Shown piece by piece: positions 2-35,164 of a stretch of 37,793 nucleotides of DNA; within the stretch, counting starts at the first letter, position 1; every line of letters begins with the position of its first letter. The DNA is taken from the UHGV virus genome UHGV-0272092. The stretch is one strand, 5' to 3'. Below the pieces are notes generated by a model. That model ran no database searches. It saw nothing but the letters and a program-made list of their open reading frames with translations, and had not been told where the DNA came from. The position numbers and the translations under genes are program-made. This stretch comes from a virus.

Positions 2-205
2 CTGTCATGGAGCACTATCGACCGTATGGAGCGCGCAGGGGAATTTCCTAAACGCTGGTATATCACCGATAAACGCTGCGCATGGAACCGTGATGAAGTT
101 GAGCGTTGGCTTGATGAACGTCAGGCAGCAAGCCCGGCAGAGTTCCAGGGTAAAAAGCCTCCTGTTCAGCAACGTGTATATCGTCCCGTGAGCAACGCTG
201 CATGA
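2..205 (+). CDS. AlpA-family DNA-binding protein (putative excisionase/regulator), 5'-truncated by window edge
   Basis: Frame 2 translates to ...STIDRMERAGEFPKRWYITDKRCAWNRDEVERWLDER..., matching the AlpA pattern (S-T-I-x-R...G-x-F-P-K...W...EV..W). Stop TGA at 203-205. Not in the ORF track because it lacks a start in the window. Confidence 0.5.
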   Translation: MSWSTIDRMERAGEFPKRWYITDKRCAWNRDEVERWLDERQAASPAEFQGKKPPVQQRVYRPVSNAA

Positions 206-1452: not shown

Positions 1453-2703
1453 TTATTCCCCCGCCATCCACTTCTCAAACTTCGACGGGGAGAACGGAAT
1501 CAGATCCGTATGCTCCCCGTCAATCCATGAATCAATCATATCGGCCCACTGCTGCAACATGTAGGCGCGCTGTCTGGCGTATTCCGCTTTGTTATATACG
1601 GCGCGCACACCTTTCTGCTCATGTGCCAGAGCCTTTTCAATCCAGTCTGAAGGATAACCAGCCTCATGCAACAACGTACTGGCTGTACGGCGCATATCAT
1701 GTACAGTGAAGTCCTGAATATGCTCACCATCTTCATTTATTATTTTCACCGTTCTGTCGATCAGAGAGTTCAGCGCGGCATTAGATAATGGCTTCCGGAA
1801 ATTGTAACGACCAGGAACCAGATATTCACTTCCACCAGCGCACATCTGCAACCCGACCAATATATCCTGTGCCTGTTTAGGCAGGTAAATAACGTGCGCC
1901 CGGCTTCCCTTCATGCGGTCTGGAGGAATTGTCCATGTCCATTTTTTAAAATCTATTTCATCCCACGTTGCATTGGTGAATTCGCCCTTACGAACCATAG
2001 TGATAAGCACCAGTTTTAAAGCCATTTTCATAGTGCCCATAGCACCAATGGCATCCAGCGTGCGGAAGAACAGGCCAATTTCTTCTGGTGCCAGTGTTCG
2101 CTCTCGTGGTTTAAATATGGCGATAGACGAAGGTTTAATGTCAGCCGCAGGATTAAACAAACCATGACCACGGTCATTGGCGTGACGGTATACGCTACTG
2201 ATGATCTCCCTGGCCTGCACTGCTGTTGCCCGGCCACCGCGTTCGACAATCCGGTCACACAAATCACGAACCATCGATGTGGTAATTTCAGCCATCATTT
2301 TATTGCCAAGAACCGGAAGTATGTCACGGTCGATCACCGCCTGTTTCATTGCGCGGGTACTGTCAGCCAGGATGACGTGTTTCATATAACTGTCGGTATG
2401 TACCGCAAACGTCTCGGCACCACGAATCTTTTTGATACCGTCACGTTTAGCCGCAGCCGGTGACTGGCCTGCTTTAAGCAGCTTCTTTGCAGCAATCAGT
2501 TCTTCTCGCGCTTCTGCCAGGCTGATACCGTCACGCCCATACTGCCCGATTACCAGTGTTTCGCGGCGACCGTTGATACGGTAGTCATAGCGAAACGAGA
2601 CCGTGCCTGACGTAAGCACAGCTACATACAGCCCGTCACGATCGGAGACCTTGTACAGTTTGTCCTGCGGCTTGAGGTTTTTTAATTTTGTATCGGTAAG
2701 CAC
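1453..2703 (-). CDS. int: tyrosine integrase (P4-type, DUF4102-like N-terminus)
   Basis: 416 aa; C-terminal catalytic region HDMRRTASTLLHEAGYPSDWIEKALAH typical of phage integrases. Confidence 0.9.
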   Translation of the reverse strand: MLTDTKLKNLKPQDKLYKVSDRDGLYVAVLTSGTVSFRYDYRINGRRETLVIGQYGRDGISLAEAREELIAAKKLLKAGQSPAAAKRDGIKKIRGAETFAVHTDSYMKHVILADSTRAMKQAVIDRDILPVLGNKMMAEITTSMVRDLCDRIVERGGRATAVQAREIISSVYRHANDRGHGLFNPAADIKPSSIAIFKPRERTLAPEEIGLFFRTLDAIGAMGTMKMALKLVLITMVRKGEFTNATWDEIDFKKWTWTIPPDRMKGSRAHVIYLPKQAQDILVGLQMCAGGSEYLVPGRYNFRKPLSNAALNSLIDRTVKIINEDGEHIQDFTVHDMRRTASTLLHEAGYPSDWIEKALAHEQKGVRAVYNKAEYARQRAYMLQQWADMIDSWIDGEHTDLIPFSPSKFEKWMAGE

Positions 2704-2745
2704 AATTCACCCGTATAGAAACCATTTTCATGACGGTATGAGAGT

Positions 2746-2760
2746 ATACCTTTAAGGTAA
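2746..2760. promoter_or_regulatory. operator-like palindrome ATACCTTTAAGGTAA about 45 bp upstream of int start, nested inside inverted repeat TGACGGTAT(2730-2738)/ATACCGTCA(2759-2767)
   Basis: Member of the TTACC-N5-GGTAA family found at OR/OL; read directly from sequence. Confidence 0.5.
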
Positions 2761-2825
2761 TACCGTCACCTGTACCGACGAAAAATATGGTGTATAGTGA
2801 ATAGAAATGAATACATAAAAACAAA

Positions 2826-2849
2826 AACCCTCTGTTTTTACAGAGGGTT
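2826..2849 (-). terminator. rho-independent terminator at the end of the late/lysis operon
   Basis: Stem AACCCTCTG / CAGAGGGTT with a 6-nt loop; on the minus strand it is followed by TTTTGTTTTT. Confidence 0.6.
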
Positions 2850-3020
2850 AAATTAGTATCTGAATAGGAATGAGTTGCTATGAGTTAGCTGTTAATCATT
2901 CCCACTCAATTATTTACGATAACCATAACCAATTGAGTGATAACATTTTTCCAAATCTCAATTTTTCCCGTACCGTTTTATATACCGTCACCGGAAATCA
3001 GTACCATGAAAAATGCCATG

Positions 3021-3503
3021 CTATCTGGTCAAAGTGTCGTACTGTTTTTCGCAGACTCTTCCGGCTTCGGCTGCCCGGTCAGCATACTCTGCCAGTTGTC
3101 TGTTTCTCTCGAGAGATTTGCTGAGCACGTCGGCAAGCAAAACTCCGGTGTCTGCGGCTGACGACCCAGCGCCGACAATGGCGTTATACTGCCTGAGCTG
3201 CTCACGGATGGCAAAGAGTTGTTGCTGCAACCGGCCAGCGCTAGCGGCAGCATCAAGAGCATCATTGCGCGCCTGGTCGATCCTCTGCTGAGCTTCACGT
3301 TCATTGGTCACTTTCTCCTGTTCGTAGTACTGACGAACTTTGTCTTCTTCGGCTTTGCGGTCTTCTTCCGCCTGAGCATACCCGGCATCGTACTGGCGAC
3401 TGCCGTGTATATTCCAGGCAACCACTCCTGATATGACCAGAACAGCAAGCACTGCCACGATAAGAAACTGTTTCCAGTATGCTTTTACGAATGCCCAGAT
3501 CAT
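3021..3503 (-). CDS. Rz-like i-spanin
   Basis: N-terminal transmembrane helix ([18 protein letters not shown]) followed by a charged coiled-coil region; directly downstream of the endolysin with overlapping start/stop. Confidence 0.7.
3029..3265 (-). CDS. Rz1-like o-spanin lipoprotein, embedded in Rz in an alternate frame
   Basis: Lipobox LPLALAGC followed by a Pro/Ser-rich region, fully nested in the Rz gene. Start taken at MMLLML; the track ORF opens at 3304. Confidence 0.6.
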   Translation of the reverse strand: MMLLMLPLALAGCSNNSLPSVSSSGSITPLSALGRQPQTPEFCLPTCSANLSRETDNWQSMLTGQPKPEESAKNSTTL

Positions 3504-5099: not shown

Positions 5100-5126
5100 C
5101 CCGCAAAATATTGCGGGCTTTTTTTT
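5100..5126 (+). terminator. plus-strand intrinsic-terminator-like hairpin overlapping the tailspike stop codon
   Basis: CCCGCAA-AATA-TTGCGGG followed by C and eight T. No annotated plus-strand gene lies upstream. Confidence 0.5.
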
Positions 5127-8100
5127 AACGTTCTTCCAGAGACTGAATCCGCTCTTTTATCTTATCCATTTCTCTGCGCTGCCATGCTGCCTCGATATAG
5201 AATAAGAGATCAGGTCTGACCCCCCATCTAGATCCTGCTGGCGTTATTTCAACGCGCTCAATGATGTCTTCCATTACCATCACTGGATTATCATCCTCAT
5301 CAACAATGATGCTCCCGTCATTATCAGTCAGCGGCATTTCCCTTTGGCCAGTAATGACGTCATCATATACTGCGGGATAATCGTCATAGCAAAGAAAGGC
5401 ATAGCGGCATGTTGTGCTTTCTTCTTCCATGAGTCCGTGAGAAATAAGAACATCACGAAGTTGCTGCGCGATTACACCATGATGTATCCTCGCCCCTTCT
5501 TCCCCCTTTATAGCGACAGCGTTCAGCCATTTATAAGCGATATACCTGACGTCACCCCAGGCATCCAGCAATGCTTCGTCAGGAGAGACCGGCTCTGTCT
5601 TTAATGTTCCGTCACTGGTAACCACAGGATTGGAGCCAAGATAAACTGTCGAGAACCTGTTTCCCGGACCACCAAGAGCATTTACATTATCAAGATAAGG
5701 TTTAACATCTCCGTTCTCAAAAAGATGTTCGAGTGCGTTATATACCGCGCGACGTGGAGTACTGCTTCCGGAACCATGCAACGTTATCATTGCACCATCT
5801 GCTGAAGACGTTATTTCACCGCCGCTAACGATTAATCTCTGAGCGGTAACATCATCAGACGGTACTTTCTTCGCAATAATGGCGTAATTACCCTCAAGTT
5901 TGACTTCCGCGCGAACTTGTCCTGATGTACCTGCATGGACAGTCAGTGACTGGACGGCAACATCATCTGTGAAATCAACGGGTACAGGAACCGTCCTCAC
6001 GCCTGACGTCGACATAAAAGTAGGAAGCGTTCTGTTAGGAGTGGCTCCGTAGACAAAATCCCTTGAAACAAATTCTTCCTGTTTAATTTTCACCCTGAAA
6101 CAATACAAATCAGCCGGGTGACCATCGTGAACATAAGGATATTTTCTGTTGTTATCCCCTATGCTCCATGGGTTTAGAAAGTCTTCCCCACCGAAAATGT
6201 AGTACAGCCAGTTGTCTTTGATACAAACTGAACCAACACCAACTGCAGAGTTAACTATTCCGCCCTGATAAATCTGATCAGTAACATTAACCCACTCTAC
6301 ATTATCCAGACTCCACTCATTGACGTTAACTCTGGTCATAAATGTTCTTGGATAATTTCCTGCATAACGGTTATCAGGTTCTCCTCCTTCCCACTCACCA
6401 AATGCGCGCTCACTGCCAAAAATAATCAGCTCATCGCCAACTTTGGCAAAAGGAAGGTTTGAGTGATGAACATTATTTGGGAAGCGAAGAGAATTCCATG
6501 ATGTACCTAAATCAGAGCTTCTGTGCAATGAACTACCGGGTTGAGTACTTAATGTCCCCCTGGTCGTCAGATACAGAATGCCATCATAATATTTTACACA
6601 TGGCTCAGATGCATTCGCCTCATATTCTGCAGGTATGCGTCTGCGAACAAAGCTACCAGGAGAACCGAAAGCATCAGAGAAATAGAGTATCCCAAGCTCG
6701 CGTGGACCAATATCACCATTATGGTAGCCAACAGCAAAACTGTTATCGCTAATCGTCGCAAAACTGTGAATCTCAGTAACAGGAGTGCTTCCGTCAACAA
6801 AAGAAGGAATAGTTCCAAGACTGGTTTTTCTCCATGGTGACGAGTGAAATGATGTACCAAAACTCCAGTATCTACCCTCGTTATTCTGATCCACATCCTG
6901 GGTATTTTGCGTCGTAACTGTAAAAGTATTTTTATCAATAACAGTAGTCACCGTCATATTCCCGGTAACACCTGTAACACCAGAGTTTGAGAAGTTGACA
7001 AAATCACCAGCAAATAATCCGTGATCAGTAATGCGAATATAAGCGACTTGCTGATTTGCTGCTTTCGTTATACCACCATAAGCGCGAAGGCTGCGACTCA
7101 TTGGGCGATCCCACAACTCTGCAACCTGCAGTTTATTTCCGCTCACGGTCCGCGTCTCAATTACAGCAAAAAGGCGATTTCTGACAACCCCCATACTCAT
7201 GCAGTGATAGTTAACTGTGGGATAGTTTTCATGTAAATCTGTAAGCCATTCCGGCGTTGTCCAGGTCTTCCCGTCATCTCCTGAGCGAACCCATGCAACA
7301 TGGAGGTTATTTACACCATGGCGGTCTCCAGCCATAAAAGGCGCATAGATGACATTGTCATATACAAACGTTTTATCCTGCGTCCAGGCGTTGTACCACG
7401 GTGTATCTGTAATTTTAAATAACTCTCCCTGGATAAAATCTTCAGAAGCATAAAAAAGAGGCTGGCCCGGTATTCTCTCAAATAAAAAACGAGCATTTTT
7501 AAATCGACTGACATCCGGAAGAGTTGATACTTTAAAAGTAAGCCCTAATCCGTCAATTTTATAACCTGGAGATGAGGCTTCAAGGCACGCGCTTATTGCA
7601 GTGGAATCGTCATTTATACCATCACCAACAGCTCCAAAATCTTTGGGGCTAATAGCATCACGCATTTTATCCTGGAACGTTCGGTACACAGCCCCAGAAC
7701 CATACTGAATAAACCAACCAAAACCACCAACAACCCCGGCGATTGCAGCATCGACATAATTACGCATTGAGCGATTATTTACAGCGTCCTGCTCAAATGA
7801 TGGATCTGCAAGGTTAGAAATTTTGTTTTGCTTTGCATCGTAATATTTTGCAAGCAAAGATGGTTTCATCAATGCACGTCTGAACCACCCAAAACATTGC
7901 TGGATCAGCATCGTCAGGTAGTCAAAGGCATCTTCATGCACTTCGGGGAAAAATTTTCCCTGATTGCGAAGGTCTGTCTCCTGCACTACATCAAGCACAC
8001 GATCTATCGTAATTCGCCATCCAGTAGCAAGCGGAGACGGAAGAACCACAGAACCGCCACTATAAGTGCCCGCCCCAGTTACCGTATAACCGGTATCCAG

Positions 8101-8244
8101 AACCAATTCTGTTACGTTTCCGTTCAGGTCAGACACCTGAACAACCAGGTCTGATTTTCTGAAAATTCGAAAAGTATACGGAAACGATGTCGTAACGCCG
8201 TTACCGGTGTATTCGTTGTGGTCAACTTCGGTTGAGACCGTCAT
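5125..8244 (-). CDS. tailspike / tail fibre protein (1039 aa), probable polysaccharide depolymerase with C-terminal chaperone-like domain
   Basis: Size, position as last virion gene, and a C-terminal segment (GVIAQQLRDVL...) reminiscent of intramolecular chaperone domains of tailspikes. Confidence 0.7.
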   Translation of the reverse strand: MTVSTEVDHNEYTGNGVTTSFPYTFRIFRKSDLVVQVSDLNGNVTELVLDTGYTVTGAGTYSGGSVVLPSPLATGWRITIDRVLDVVQETDLRNQGKFFPEVHEDAFDYLTMLIQQCFGWFRRALMKPSLLAKYYDAKQNKISNLADPSFEQDAVNNRSMRNYVDAAIAGVVGGFGWFIQYGSGAVYRTFQDKMRDAISPKDFGAVGDGINDDSTAISACLEASSPGYKIDGLGLTFKVSTLPDVSRFKNARFLFERIPGQPLFYASEDFIQGELFKITDTPWYNAWTQDKTFVYDNVIYAPFMAGDRHGVNNLHVAWVRSGDDGKTWTTPEWLTDLHENYPTVNYHCMSMGVVRNRLFAVIETRTVSGNKLQVAELWDRPMSRSLRAYGGITKAANQQVAYIRITDHGLFAGDFVNFSNSGVTGVTGNMTVTTVIDKNTFTVTTQNTQDVDQNNEGRYWSFGTSFHSSPWRKTSLGTIPSFVDGSTPVTEIHSFATISDNSFAVGYHNGDIGPRELGILYFSDAFGSPGSFVRRRIPAEYEANASEPCVKYYDGILYLTTRGTLSTQPGSSLHRSSDLGTSWNSLRFPNNVHHSNLPFAKVGDELIIFGSERAFGEWEGGEPDNRYAGNYPRTFMTRVNVNEWSLDNVEWVNVTDQIYQGGIVNSAVGVGSVCIKDNWLYYIFGGEDFLNPWSIGDNNRKYPYVHDGHPADLYCFRVKIKQEEFVSRDFVYGATPNRTLPTFMSTSGVRTVPVPVDFTDDVAVQSLTVHAGTSGQVRAEVKLEGNYAIIAKKVPSDDVTAQRLIVSGGEITSSADGAMITLHGSGSSTPRRAVYNALEHLFENGDVKPYLDNVNALGGPGNRFSTVYLGSNPVVTSDGTLKTEPVSPDEALLDAWGDVRYIAYKWLNAVAIKGEEGARIHHGVIAQQLRDVLISHGLMEEESTTCRYAFLCYDDYPAVYDDVITGQREMPLTDNDGSIIVDEDDNPVMVMEDIIERVEITPAGSRWGVRPDLLFYIEAAWQRREMDKIKERIQSLEER

Positions 8245-25303: not shown

Positions 25304-25380
25304 GTGGCATTAGCTCAGTTGGACAGAGCAACCGCCTTCTAAGCGGTTGGTCGCAGGTTCGAATCCTGCATGCCACGCCA
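25304..25380 (+). tRNA. tRNA-Arg (anticodon UCU), 77 nt including CCA
   Basis: Hand-folded cloverleaf: acceptor GTGGCAT/ATGCCAC, D-stem GCTC/GAGC, anticodon stem ACCGC/GCGGT with loop CTTCTAA, T-stem GCAGG/CCTGC with loop TTCGAAT, discriminator G, CCA. Confidence 0.85.
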
Positions 25381-34579: not shown

Positions 34580-35164
34580 ATGAAAAGTATCCAGGACGTC
34601 CGCAGGCAAAATCTCAACGACTTGATCGACCGTGAATTCAATGGTGTTCAGACGCGGATGGCAGAAAAACTTGGAACTCAGGCAAATCTGGTAAACCGCT
34701 GGGCTCTTGGCAAGAAGGTTATCGGCGACCAGGTTGCACGAAAAATTGAAGCTGCCGCCAATAAACCCCGTAACTGGCTTGATATTGATCGTTCGCTTTC
34801 TCAGGAGGGTTTTCAGCCTGTCGGCCCGAGCGATATAGGTCAGCTGGCGGCTCACAACCTGGAACGCTGGATGAGCGAAAGCCGCGACCTTTCAACACAG
34901 GGAAAACTTCACCGCGCATCCGGCGTCGCCCAGGTGACAATCAGCCGCCTGTTAAACAATGAGGTCAGCGTTTCCATTTCCACCCTGGAGAATGTTGCAT
35001 CCGCATTCGGGCGTCACGGATATGAACTACTGATTCACCCGCACGACCCTGCGACTATCAACTATGACCGCTCACGCTACGCATTGTTACCCGAAACCGA
35101 GAAAGCAAAGATCGAAAGTTACATTGAATTTGTCATCAACCAGAACGAAAAAAGCAAACAATAA
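34580..35164 (+). CDS. prophage repressor, tandem HTH domains, no S24 peptidase domain
   Basis: Two XRE-type HTH-like segments (TRMAEKLGTQANLVNRWALGKK and ASGVAQVTISRLLNNEVSVS); no Ala-Gly / Ser-Lys autocleavage signature. Confidence 0.65.
   Translation: MKSIQDVRRQNLNDLIDREFNGVQTRMAEKLGTQANLVNRWALGKKVIGDQVARKIEAAANKPRNWLDIDRSLSQEGFQPVGPSDIGQLAAHNLERWMSESRDLSTQGKLHRASGVAQVTISRLLNNEVSVSISTLENVASAFGRHGYELLIHPHDPATINYDRSRYALLPETEKAKIESYIEFVINQNEKSKQ

Follow-up and report, generated by a model that had tools for sequence, protein, structure and literature searches.

Does the DNA upstream of the integrase gene int in this phage genome hold the arm sites of the attachment site attP, the control elements of int, or both? 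The question concerns positions 2704–3020 of the window, that is, the whole stretch of viral DNA analyzed here (37,793 nucleotides, UHGV virus genome UHGV-0272092), where a set of short repeats and a palindrome had led the original prediction to propose attP arm sites and/or int control. This hedged reading is upheld, as the crossover core lies between the repeats and four copies of the repeat are already annotated as integrase sites in Salmonella phage epsilon15. It is highly probable that the region is both the attP of a temperate podovirus of the epsilon15/phiV10 group and the 5′ control region of int.

Judged from its sequence, the window phage is a Uetakevirus, a temperate podovirus of the group just named. 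Nucleotide identity in the region is 98.8% to phage vB_EcoP_ZX5 (ZX5), 96.5% to phiV10, and about 83% to epsilon15, and the int region is 96–99% identical to ZX5 and phiV10. The gene order endolysin, Rz, terminator, attP, int is common to the window and these three phages; the window phage differs from them in other parts of the genome, such as its endosialidase tailspike. An open reading frame at 26–205, cut by the window end and with no Pfam match, corresponds to the AlpA-family gene of phiV10 (phiV10p36 homologue). The genes and the elements around the core are as follows:

1453–2703, minus strand: int, a P4-type tyrosine integrase of 416 aa with a GTG start (Pfam Arm-DNA-bind_3, Phage_int_M, and Phage_integrase)
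2796–2805, no strand: conserved box, on the plus strand (T)AGTGAATAG and on the minus strand CTATTCACT, with almost no variation among all Uetakevirus-type relatives
2826–2849, minus strand: rho-independent terminator (10-bp stem, 4-nt loop, T-run) that ends the lysis operon, annotated in epsilon15 and phiV10
2894–2910, 17 bp: attP core AATCATTCCCACTCAAT, identical to attB and the reverse complement of the last guaA codons
2903–2942, no strand: inverted repeat CACTCAATT/AATTGAGTG beside the core (arms 2903–2916 and 2926–2939, 20 bp apart) with three near-matches to the IHF consensus
3021–3503, minus strand: Rz-like spanin gene (Pfam DUF2514, annotated as Rz-like spanin in relatives), the last gene of the lysis operon and the right bound of attP

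The crossover core and its guaA target

Prophage junctions locate the crossover. When positions 2400–3400 were used as a query against 5,426 complete E. coli genomes, matches were found in 569, and in nearly all of these the match was split in two places, with query 1–511 adjoining guaA on the int side and query 495–1001 forming the other part. The two parts overlap at query 495–511, which is window 2894–2910. Comparison of the empty K-12 attB (locus L006) with the attL (L004) and attR (L005) of lysogens gave this 17-bp core as the common sequence, all three carrying exactly AATCATTCCCACTCAAT, and the prophages are bordered by guaA and yfgI. The reverse complement of the core reads ATT GAG TGG GAA TGA, I-E-W-E-stop, the end of GMP synthase, and the distance from the core to the int start (2703) is 191 bp. 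For ZX5, a 17-bp core, attgagtgggaatgatt, was placed 190 bp 5′ of int, with PCR and sequencing of attB, attL, and attR, and the same core was stated to have been shown earlier for phiV10 and epsilon15 (PMC9782041). Since the junctions and the published core place the crossover at 2894–2910, the attP core falls inside 2704–3020 and between repeat copies. The alternative position for attP that the original prediction had kept in play, 1258–1452, is excluded, since this stretch codes for a DUF1382 protein and none of the prophage junctions falls within it. A tRNA target was also looked for, as P4-type integrases usually target tRNA genes; the sole tRNA gene in the window, Arg(tct) at 25304–25380, lies far from int, and the target is guaA.

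Strand exchange takes place within the 17-bp core. As host guaA carries the same 17 bp at its 3′ end, its stop codon is restored on insertion. The minus-strand terminator that had been proposed between the lysis operon and int was confirmed by a terminator scan at 2826–2849, and its stem (AACCCTCTGT/ACAGAGGGTT) is identical to that of the host guaA terminator; therefore, after integration, transcription of guaA stops at the phage copy and that of the lysis operon at the host copy. In the lysogen, the phage terminator would thus both end guaA transcription and insulate int.

No convincing inverted repeat could be defined as core-type Int sites around the 17-bp core. The inverted repeat CACTCAATT/AATTGAGTG appears to fit IHF sites better than core-type Int sites. 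With one mismatch allowed, the IHF consensus WATCAANNNNTTR is matched at 2904, 2926, and 2930, although such matches number 36 window-wide against 37 expected by chance; the epsilon15 record has IHF sites at the corresponding place.

Repeats on both sides of the core and a nested dyad

The repeat ATACCGTCAC occurs as five exact copies and one copy with a single mismatch within 2182–2991, and no other exact copy is found in the 37.8 kb. With at most one mismatch, the window holds 10 matches against 1.46 expected, and none of 100 shuffles reached 10. All the elements originally noted are present, but some of their coordinates were off by one base: TGACGGTAT lies at 2731–2739 instead of 2730–2738, and ATACCGTCA at 2760–2768 instead of 2759–2767. 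The third copy further out, previously put at about 2986, was found as ATACCGTCACC at 2982–2992. The palindrome ATACCTTTAAGGTAA does occupy 2746–2760 but is symmetric only over 2747–2759 (TACCTT-T-AAGGTA). Three further copies, all within int, had been absent from the earlier description (2182–2191 on the minus strand, 2435–2444 and 2525–2534 on the plus strand). The repeat copies and the dyad are listed below:

2182–2191, minus strand: exact arm-type copy ATACCGTCAC in int, codons V-Y-R-H, lineage-specific
2392–2405, no strand: head-to-head degenerate arm-type pair GTCGGTAT and GTACCG in int, the longest invariant run of int
2435–2444, plus strand: exact arm-type copy in int, codons R-D-G-I, "protein_bind: integrase" in epsilon15
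2525–2534, plus strand: exact arm-type copy in int, codons R-D-G-I, integrase site in epsilon15
2730–2739, minus strand: inverted arm-type copy ATACCGTCAT with one mismatch, between the int start and the dyad
2747–2759, no strand: operator-like dyad TACCTT-T-AAGGTA, one half being the consensus ATTACC (minus strand) and the other TATACC
2760–2769, plus strand: exact arm-type copy of the int-proximal arm, integrase site in epsilon15
2772–2781, plus strand: degenerate arm-type copy GTACCGACGA, 12 nt after the 2760 copy
2970–2991, plus strand: Rz-proximal arm, with a degenerate copy GTACCGTTTT (2970–2979) and an exact copy ATACCGTCAC (2982–2991) 12 nt apart; the 2982 copy is an integrase site in epsilon15

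The motif is unlike the core and is found on both sides of it. Measured from the core (~2902), the 2730, 2760, and 2772 copies lie at about −120 to −170 on the int side, and the 2970 and 2982 copies at about +70 to +90 on the Rz side. The four direct copies (2435, 2525, 2760, and 2982) hold their position in eight phage relatives with 77–84% nucleotide identity; a ninth locus, L012, ends before the position of the 2982 copy. The position of the 2760 copy is conserved in all relatives, and that of the 2435 copy in all eight phages, BUCT554 differing by a single substitution. The E. coli and Salmonella phages retain the inverted copy at 2730, which is weaker in Tyrion, BUCT554, and BUCT711. Most relatives also retain GTACCG at the 2772 copy, where ATACCGTCAA is read in BUCT711 and the KPC3 phage, and the block TACCGTTTTATATACCGTCAC in the Rz-proximal arm is invariant in the eight relatives. 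The epsilon15 record (AY150271.2) carries four "protein_bind: integrase" features at the exact homologues of 2435, 2525, 2760, and 2982, together with three IHF sites and a terminator, all of which are computational annotations. The records of phiV10, epsilon15, and ZX5 hold no annotation of the 2182, 2730, 2772, and 2970 copies, the 2392–2405 block, or the dyad.

Int residues 2–87 match Pfam PF13356 (Arm-DNA-bind_3, E 3.9e-20), and the ATACCGTCAC repeats are putative arm-type sites, most likely bound by this N-terminal arm domain of the P4-type integrase. The arm domain would occupy the repeats while the core-binding and catalytic domains hold the core, and bends at the IHF-like sites beside the core would help to fold about 2725–2995 into an intasome. 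The accessible literature yielded no experiment on the binding of Int, IHF, or Rep to this DNA.

The palindrome had been assigned to an operator family. Genome-wide, this family is real, with nine TACC-N5-GGTA sites in the window against 0.24 expected, but one half-site of the int-upstream member deviates. The other eight sites read (A/T/G)TTACC-N5-GGTAA(T/C), with T beside TACC in all 16 half-sites, whereas the int-upstream dyad has A in one half (ATACC). Several members of the family flank the repressor gene rep (34580–35164), and others precede the tailspike and portal operons. In epsilon15, the ATTACC-N5-GGTAAT sites homologous to this family are annotated "repressor, lysogeny"; the homologous dyad upstream of int shows the same single deviant half-site and was not labeled a repressor site by the annotators. 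Among about 18 Uetakevirus-type relatives, both half-sites are invariant, including the deviation, and the N5 spacer takes seven forms. Constant half-sites around a variable spacer would suit a dyad-binding protein. The dyad is absent from the more distant guaA elements, which keep arm sites. The Rep of the window is homologous to SPC32H Rep (PDB 5D50, E 3.5e-42), which binds palindromic sites as a tetramer (PMC9638917). Binding of Rep at the predicted operator 2747–2759 comes close to an even chance in our estimation, and repressor control of int, which had been suggested from the palindrome, is plausible on these grounds.

It is less probable, although still to be weighed seriously, that the dyad is not a Rep operator and serves instead as the site of an excision factor of the AlpA/Vis type, a protein of this type being encoded at the window's left end, or that it arose as a degenerate arm copy (ATACCTTTAA) standing beside GGTA by chance. 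The left half of the dyad, ATACC, equals the first half of the arm motif, BUCT711 and L022 read ATACCGTAAT (8 of 10 positions matching the motif), and one half-site is off the operator consensus in every relative. Furthermore, Piazzolla et al. 2006 are said to have described that Vis and Int of phage P4 both act at the int promoter. However, GGTA is invariant though it lies outside the arm motif, the bases on the 5′ side of the five remaining copies being G, G, T, T, and C; the constant half-sites with their variable spacer fit a dyad-binding protein; and an excision factor would need no eight further sites across the genome and around rep.

The repeat motif among guaA-targeting integrases and inside int

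To what extent the repeat belongs to this group of integrases was examined in a family scan with one genome per species, which gave 47 loci with integrase relatives. In 29 of 33 loci (47–91% identity), the locus lies 190–360 bp downstream of a guaA ending in ...IEWE; in the remaining four, the guaA end was not found within the sequence examined. The 33 loci span enterobacteria, Aeromonadales, and beta- and alpha-proteobacteria, and 30 of them have three to nine copies of TACCGTC upstream of or inside int. By comparison, five distant relatives (28–38% identity) showed no guaA end, and four of the five were without TACCGTC. An inverted pair of copies, 29–40 bp apart, recurs in distant relatives. 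Covariation of Int with the motif was absent among the 33 relatives, where the motif is constant, and a changed motif was seen in GIsul2 only.

For the island GIsul2, the integration site is GAGTGGGA, at the guaA 3′ end (PMC9376610). This target is like that of the window phage, whose core contains GAGTGGGA; the Int proteins of GIsul2 and the window have 54% identity, and in GIsul2 int is followed by an AlpA gene. GIsul2, which is an island and not a phage, lacks the operator-like dyad and TACCGTC; it carries ATACCATG, in place of the window repeat ATACCGTC, three times, at about −127, −100, and −32. The positions and orientations of these copies are those of TACCGTC in the beta-proteobacterial relatives. 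Such a concerted change of the motif at homologous positions would be expected if a single protein reads the sites.

The copies within the reading frame raise a separate question, namely, whether they are kept as DNA. A codon alignment of nine integrase genes was used as a test of selection inside int. Of the codons with an invariant amino acid, 52 of 262 (20%) are themselves invariant, and the two longest invariant runs are 2392–2405 (GTCGGTATGTACCG, 14 nt) and 2523–2534 (TGATACCGTCAC, 12 nt), with 2435–2442 tied as the fourth longest. In relatives with 49–71% identity, the counterpart of the 2392–2405 pair is the copy of TACCGTC at CDS nt 305. The copies at CDS nt 171 and 261 are found in gamma-proteobacterial relatives only, where D-G-I is always encoded as GAC GGT AT. 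The 2182 copy is found in phiV10 and Tyrion only and is absent from the Salmonella and Klebsiella phages, and its codons are not invariant. Taken as a whole, the alignment suggests selection on the in-gene copies at the DNA level, beyond coding.

The in-gene copies might instead be a by-product of coding for the peptide R-D-G-I under codon bias, the intergenic copies alone being functional. Two of them do encode R-D-G-I, a third R-D-G (2631–2640, CCCGTCAC) is also fairly conserved, and the 2182 copy is lineage-specific with variable codons. Nevertheless, we regard this explanation as improbable. The runs at 2392–2405 and 2523–2534 are the longest in int against a background of only 20% invariant codons at invariant residues; the residue before D-G-I varies among gamma-proteobacterial relatives (R, I, P, A, S) while GACGGTA stays constant; outside that clade, D-G-I is written GAT GGC ATT or GAC GGC ATA; and the 2182 and 2392 copies stand in the opposite orientation and in different codon contexts. 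Selection on the DNA itself thus remains our preferred reading, and the in-int copies (2392–2534) would extend the int-proximal arm. They lie 360–510 bp from the core, beyond the classical distance of arm sites, and need not take part in recombination.

Control of int and comparison with known systems

The 9-bp inverted repeat with its nested palindrome could also be read as a hairpin in the int leader RNA, serving RNase III processing or translation control, and not as DNA-binding sites. The homologous 39 nt in epsilon15 (AY150271.2) are labeled "RNaseIII, mRNA processing," and the minus-strand RNA of 2722–2778 folds to −16.1 kcal/mol (z = −2.33), mildly better than shuffles. However, covariation on nine relatives was no better than in shuffles, one pair changing on both sides and most substitutions breaking pairs; conservation is far stronger in the right arm, which is the 2760 arm-type copy, than in the left; this 10-mer is found at four more places where there is no hairpin; and the helix of 10 + 5 bp with a 7-nt bulge is shorter than typical RNase III substrates. 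A transcription start near 2737, if so, leaves the hairpin out of the mRNA. With its mild folding excess and absent covariation, the RNase III reading was rejected, and a leader hairpin is very improbable.

A promoter scan of 2400–3200 found no sigma-70 promoter upstream of int. The best −10 element picked manually, TATACT at 2748–2743 (TATAAT in epsilon15), overlaps the dyad; its candidate −35, GTGACG with a 15-nt spacer, is poor, and the final T of the −10 is lost in two relatives, L021 and L023. With this candidate, the −35 position would be covered by the arm copy at 2760 and the transcription start by the copy at 2730, a layout by which Int and Rep could both repress int. A promoter at this place, open to repression by both proteins, is doubtful. 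The inverted copies at 2730 and 2760 lie on either side of the DNA immediately upstream of the int start codon, and bound Int therefore probably also represses its own gene. The dyad between the two copies would act as a weak Rep operator that keeps int off in the lysogen.

The binding of Int, IHF, and Rep and the promoter position are inferred here. We tentatively propose, at somewhat less than even odds, a three-way control module that has not yet been described. In the int-proximal arm, an operator weakened by design, set at the int promoter between two arm sites of Int, would be the target of Rep, and the arm sites inside int would be kept by selection at synonymous positions. TACCGTC would be the arm-site code of guaA-targeting integrases across alpha-, beta-, and gamma-proteobacteria, switched in concert to ATACCATG in GIsul2.

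Besides GIsul2, three known systems offer a frame for the region. The attP regions of phiV10, epsilon15, and ZX5 show no substantial difference from the window, sharing the 17-bp core, its distance of about 190 bp from the int start, and the layout Rz, terminator, core, int. The attP of lambda is alike in having a heterobivalent integrase with a separate arm-binding domain, as in the domain content of the window Int, a short repeat that flanks the crossover on either side and is unrelated to the core, and IHF-like sites near the core. Lambda attP carries the arm-type sites P1-P2 and P′1-P′3 along with IHF and Xis sites, and the arm-site distances in the window resemble this geometry. Unlike in lambda, the window integrase is of the P4 type (Arm-DNA-bind_3), attB is the 3′ end of a protein gene, and extra conserved copies lie 360–510 bp away inside the reading frame. 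Also unlike in lambda, int faces attP with its 5′ end, and the arm therefore overlaps the int control region. Finally, P4 int/attP and E. coli CP4-57 intA/alpA share with the window the integrase family, an attP directly 5′ of int, a small AlpA/Vis-type regulator encoded nearby (in the window, the phiV10p36 homologue), and putative Int-binding repeats that overlap the int promoter region. In P4, Int repeats over the int promoter region give negative autoregulation. The window differs from these two elements in targeting guaA and not a tRNA gene and in its repeat motif, and its autoregulation is a proposal.

Since the literature already gives the core and the integration site, and the record of the sister phage epsilon15 has four of the repeats annotated, the finding as such is already known. 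The conserved in-gene copies, the operator-like dyad in the arm, and the family-wide motif with its switch in GIsul2 appear to be undescribed. Neither the shared arm motif nor a link between repressor and int would alter the understanding of site-specific recombination, and the wider value is modest. For the window phage, the prophage ends are now fixed, with integration in guaA and the core at 2894–2910. For the very broad family of guaA-targeting integrases, including that of the sul2 resistance island GIsul2, the comparison suggests a testable arm-site motif in common, and it also suggests a direct link from the phage repressor to int expression.

Putative arm motif in integrase relatives and in GIsul2

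The regions upstream of the integrase gene were compared among integrase relatives from alpha-, beta- and gamma-proteobacteria (loci L014-L046 and L052). At 47-91% identity, the end of guaA lay just upstream in 29 of 33 relatives, and the putative arm-type motif TACCGTC was found in 30 of the 33, with three to nine copies each. At 28-38% identity, no guaA end was seen at any of the five distant relatives, and TACCGTC was absent at four of them.

For GIsul2, the resistance island carrying sul2, we considered positions 1-1200 of its locus (L061), taken from a plasmid of A. baumannii ATCC 17978, as the upstream region. The integrase of GIsul2 shares 54% identity with that of the window, and at -127, -100 and -32 upstream of its gene TACCGTC is replaced by ATACCATG. 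Since these copies hold the same positions and orientations as TACCGTC in the beta-proteobacterial relatives, the arm motif appears to have changed from TACCGTC in a concerted way.

Terminators, conserved box and a probable excision factor

The phage terminator (window 2826-2849) and the host guaA terminator (2905-2935 of L006, the empty K-12 locus) have a 10-bp stem in common, AACCCTCTGT/ACAGAGGGTT, and differ in the loop. On integration the two terminators are exchanged, so that neither guaA nor the phage lysis operon loses its terminator function. A box, AGTGAATAG (reverse complement CTATTCACT; window 2796-2805), has the arm sites on one side and the phage terminator on the other. It shows almost no variation in any of the Uetakevirus-type relatives and could be a site for the AlpA-like factor or an activator. 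Two further genes were considered in relation to integration:

26-205, plus strand: ORF cut by the window's left end, counterpart of the phiV10 AlpA-family gene
25304-25380, plus strand: tRNA-Arg (anticodon tct), carried by the phage

The product of the first is the likely excision factor; a Pfam search with this incomplete ORF gave no match. The tRNA-Arg is unrelated to the integration site.

In five E. coli chromosomes (H26-H30), an uninterrupted attP occurs as well as the prophage junctions, which makes three places in each; these are probably tandem lysogens. The same integrase is also encoded by two 41-kb records deposited as plasmids (NZ_CP079771.1 and NZ_CP079768.1), which may represent phage genomes in circular form.

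Repressor-type dyads and tailspike

Other features of the window concern regulation and host range:

8350, 24968, 28091, 32162, 32224, 34511, 35223, 35285: eight TTACC-N5-GGTAA dyads
5125-8244, minus strand: tailspike, endosialidase (End_beta_propel, E 1.2e-233, with End_tail_spike and chaperone domains)

These eight dyads belong to a set of nine such sites, for which 0.24 were expected over the whole window. Several adjoin the repressor gene on its flanks and others lie upstream of the tailspike and portal operons, a spread over the genome that suggests that a single repressor works at many promoters. Because its tailspike is an endosialidase, the window phage, a member of the phiV10 group, probably targets the K1 polysialic-acid capsule.
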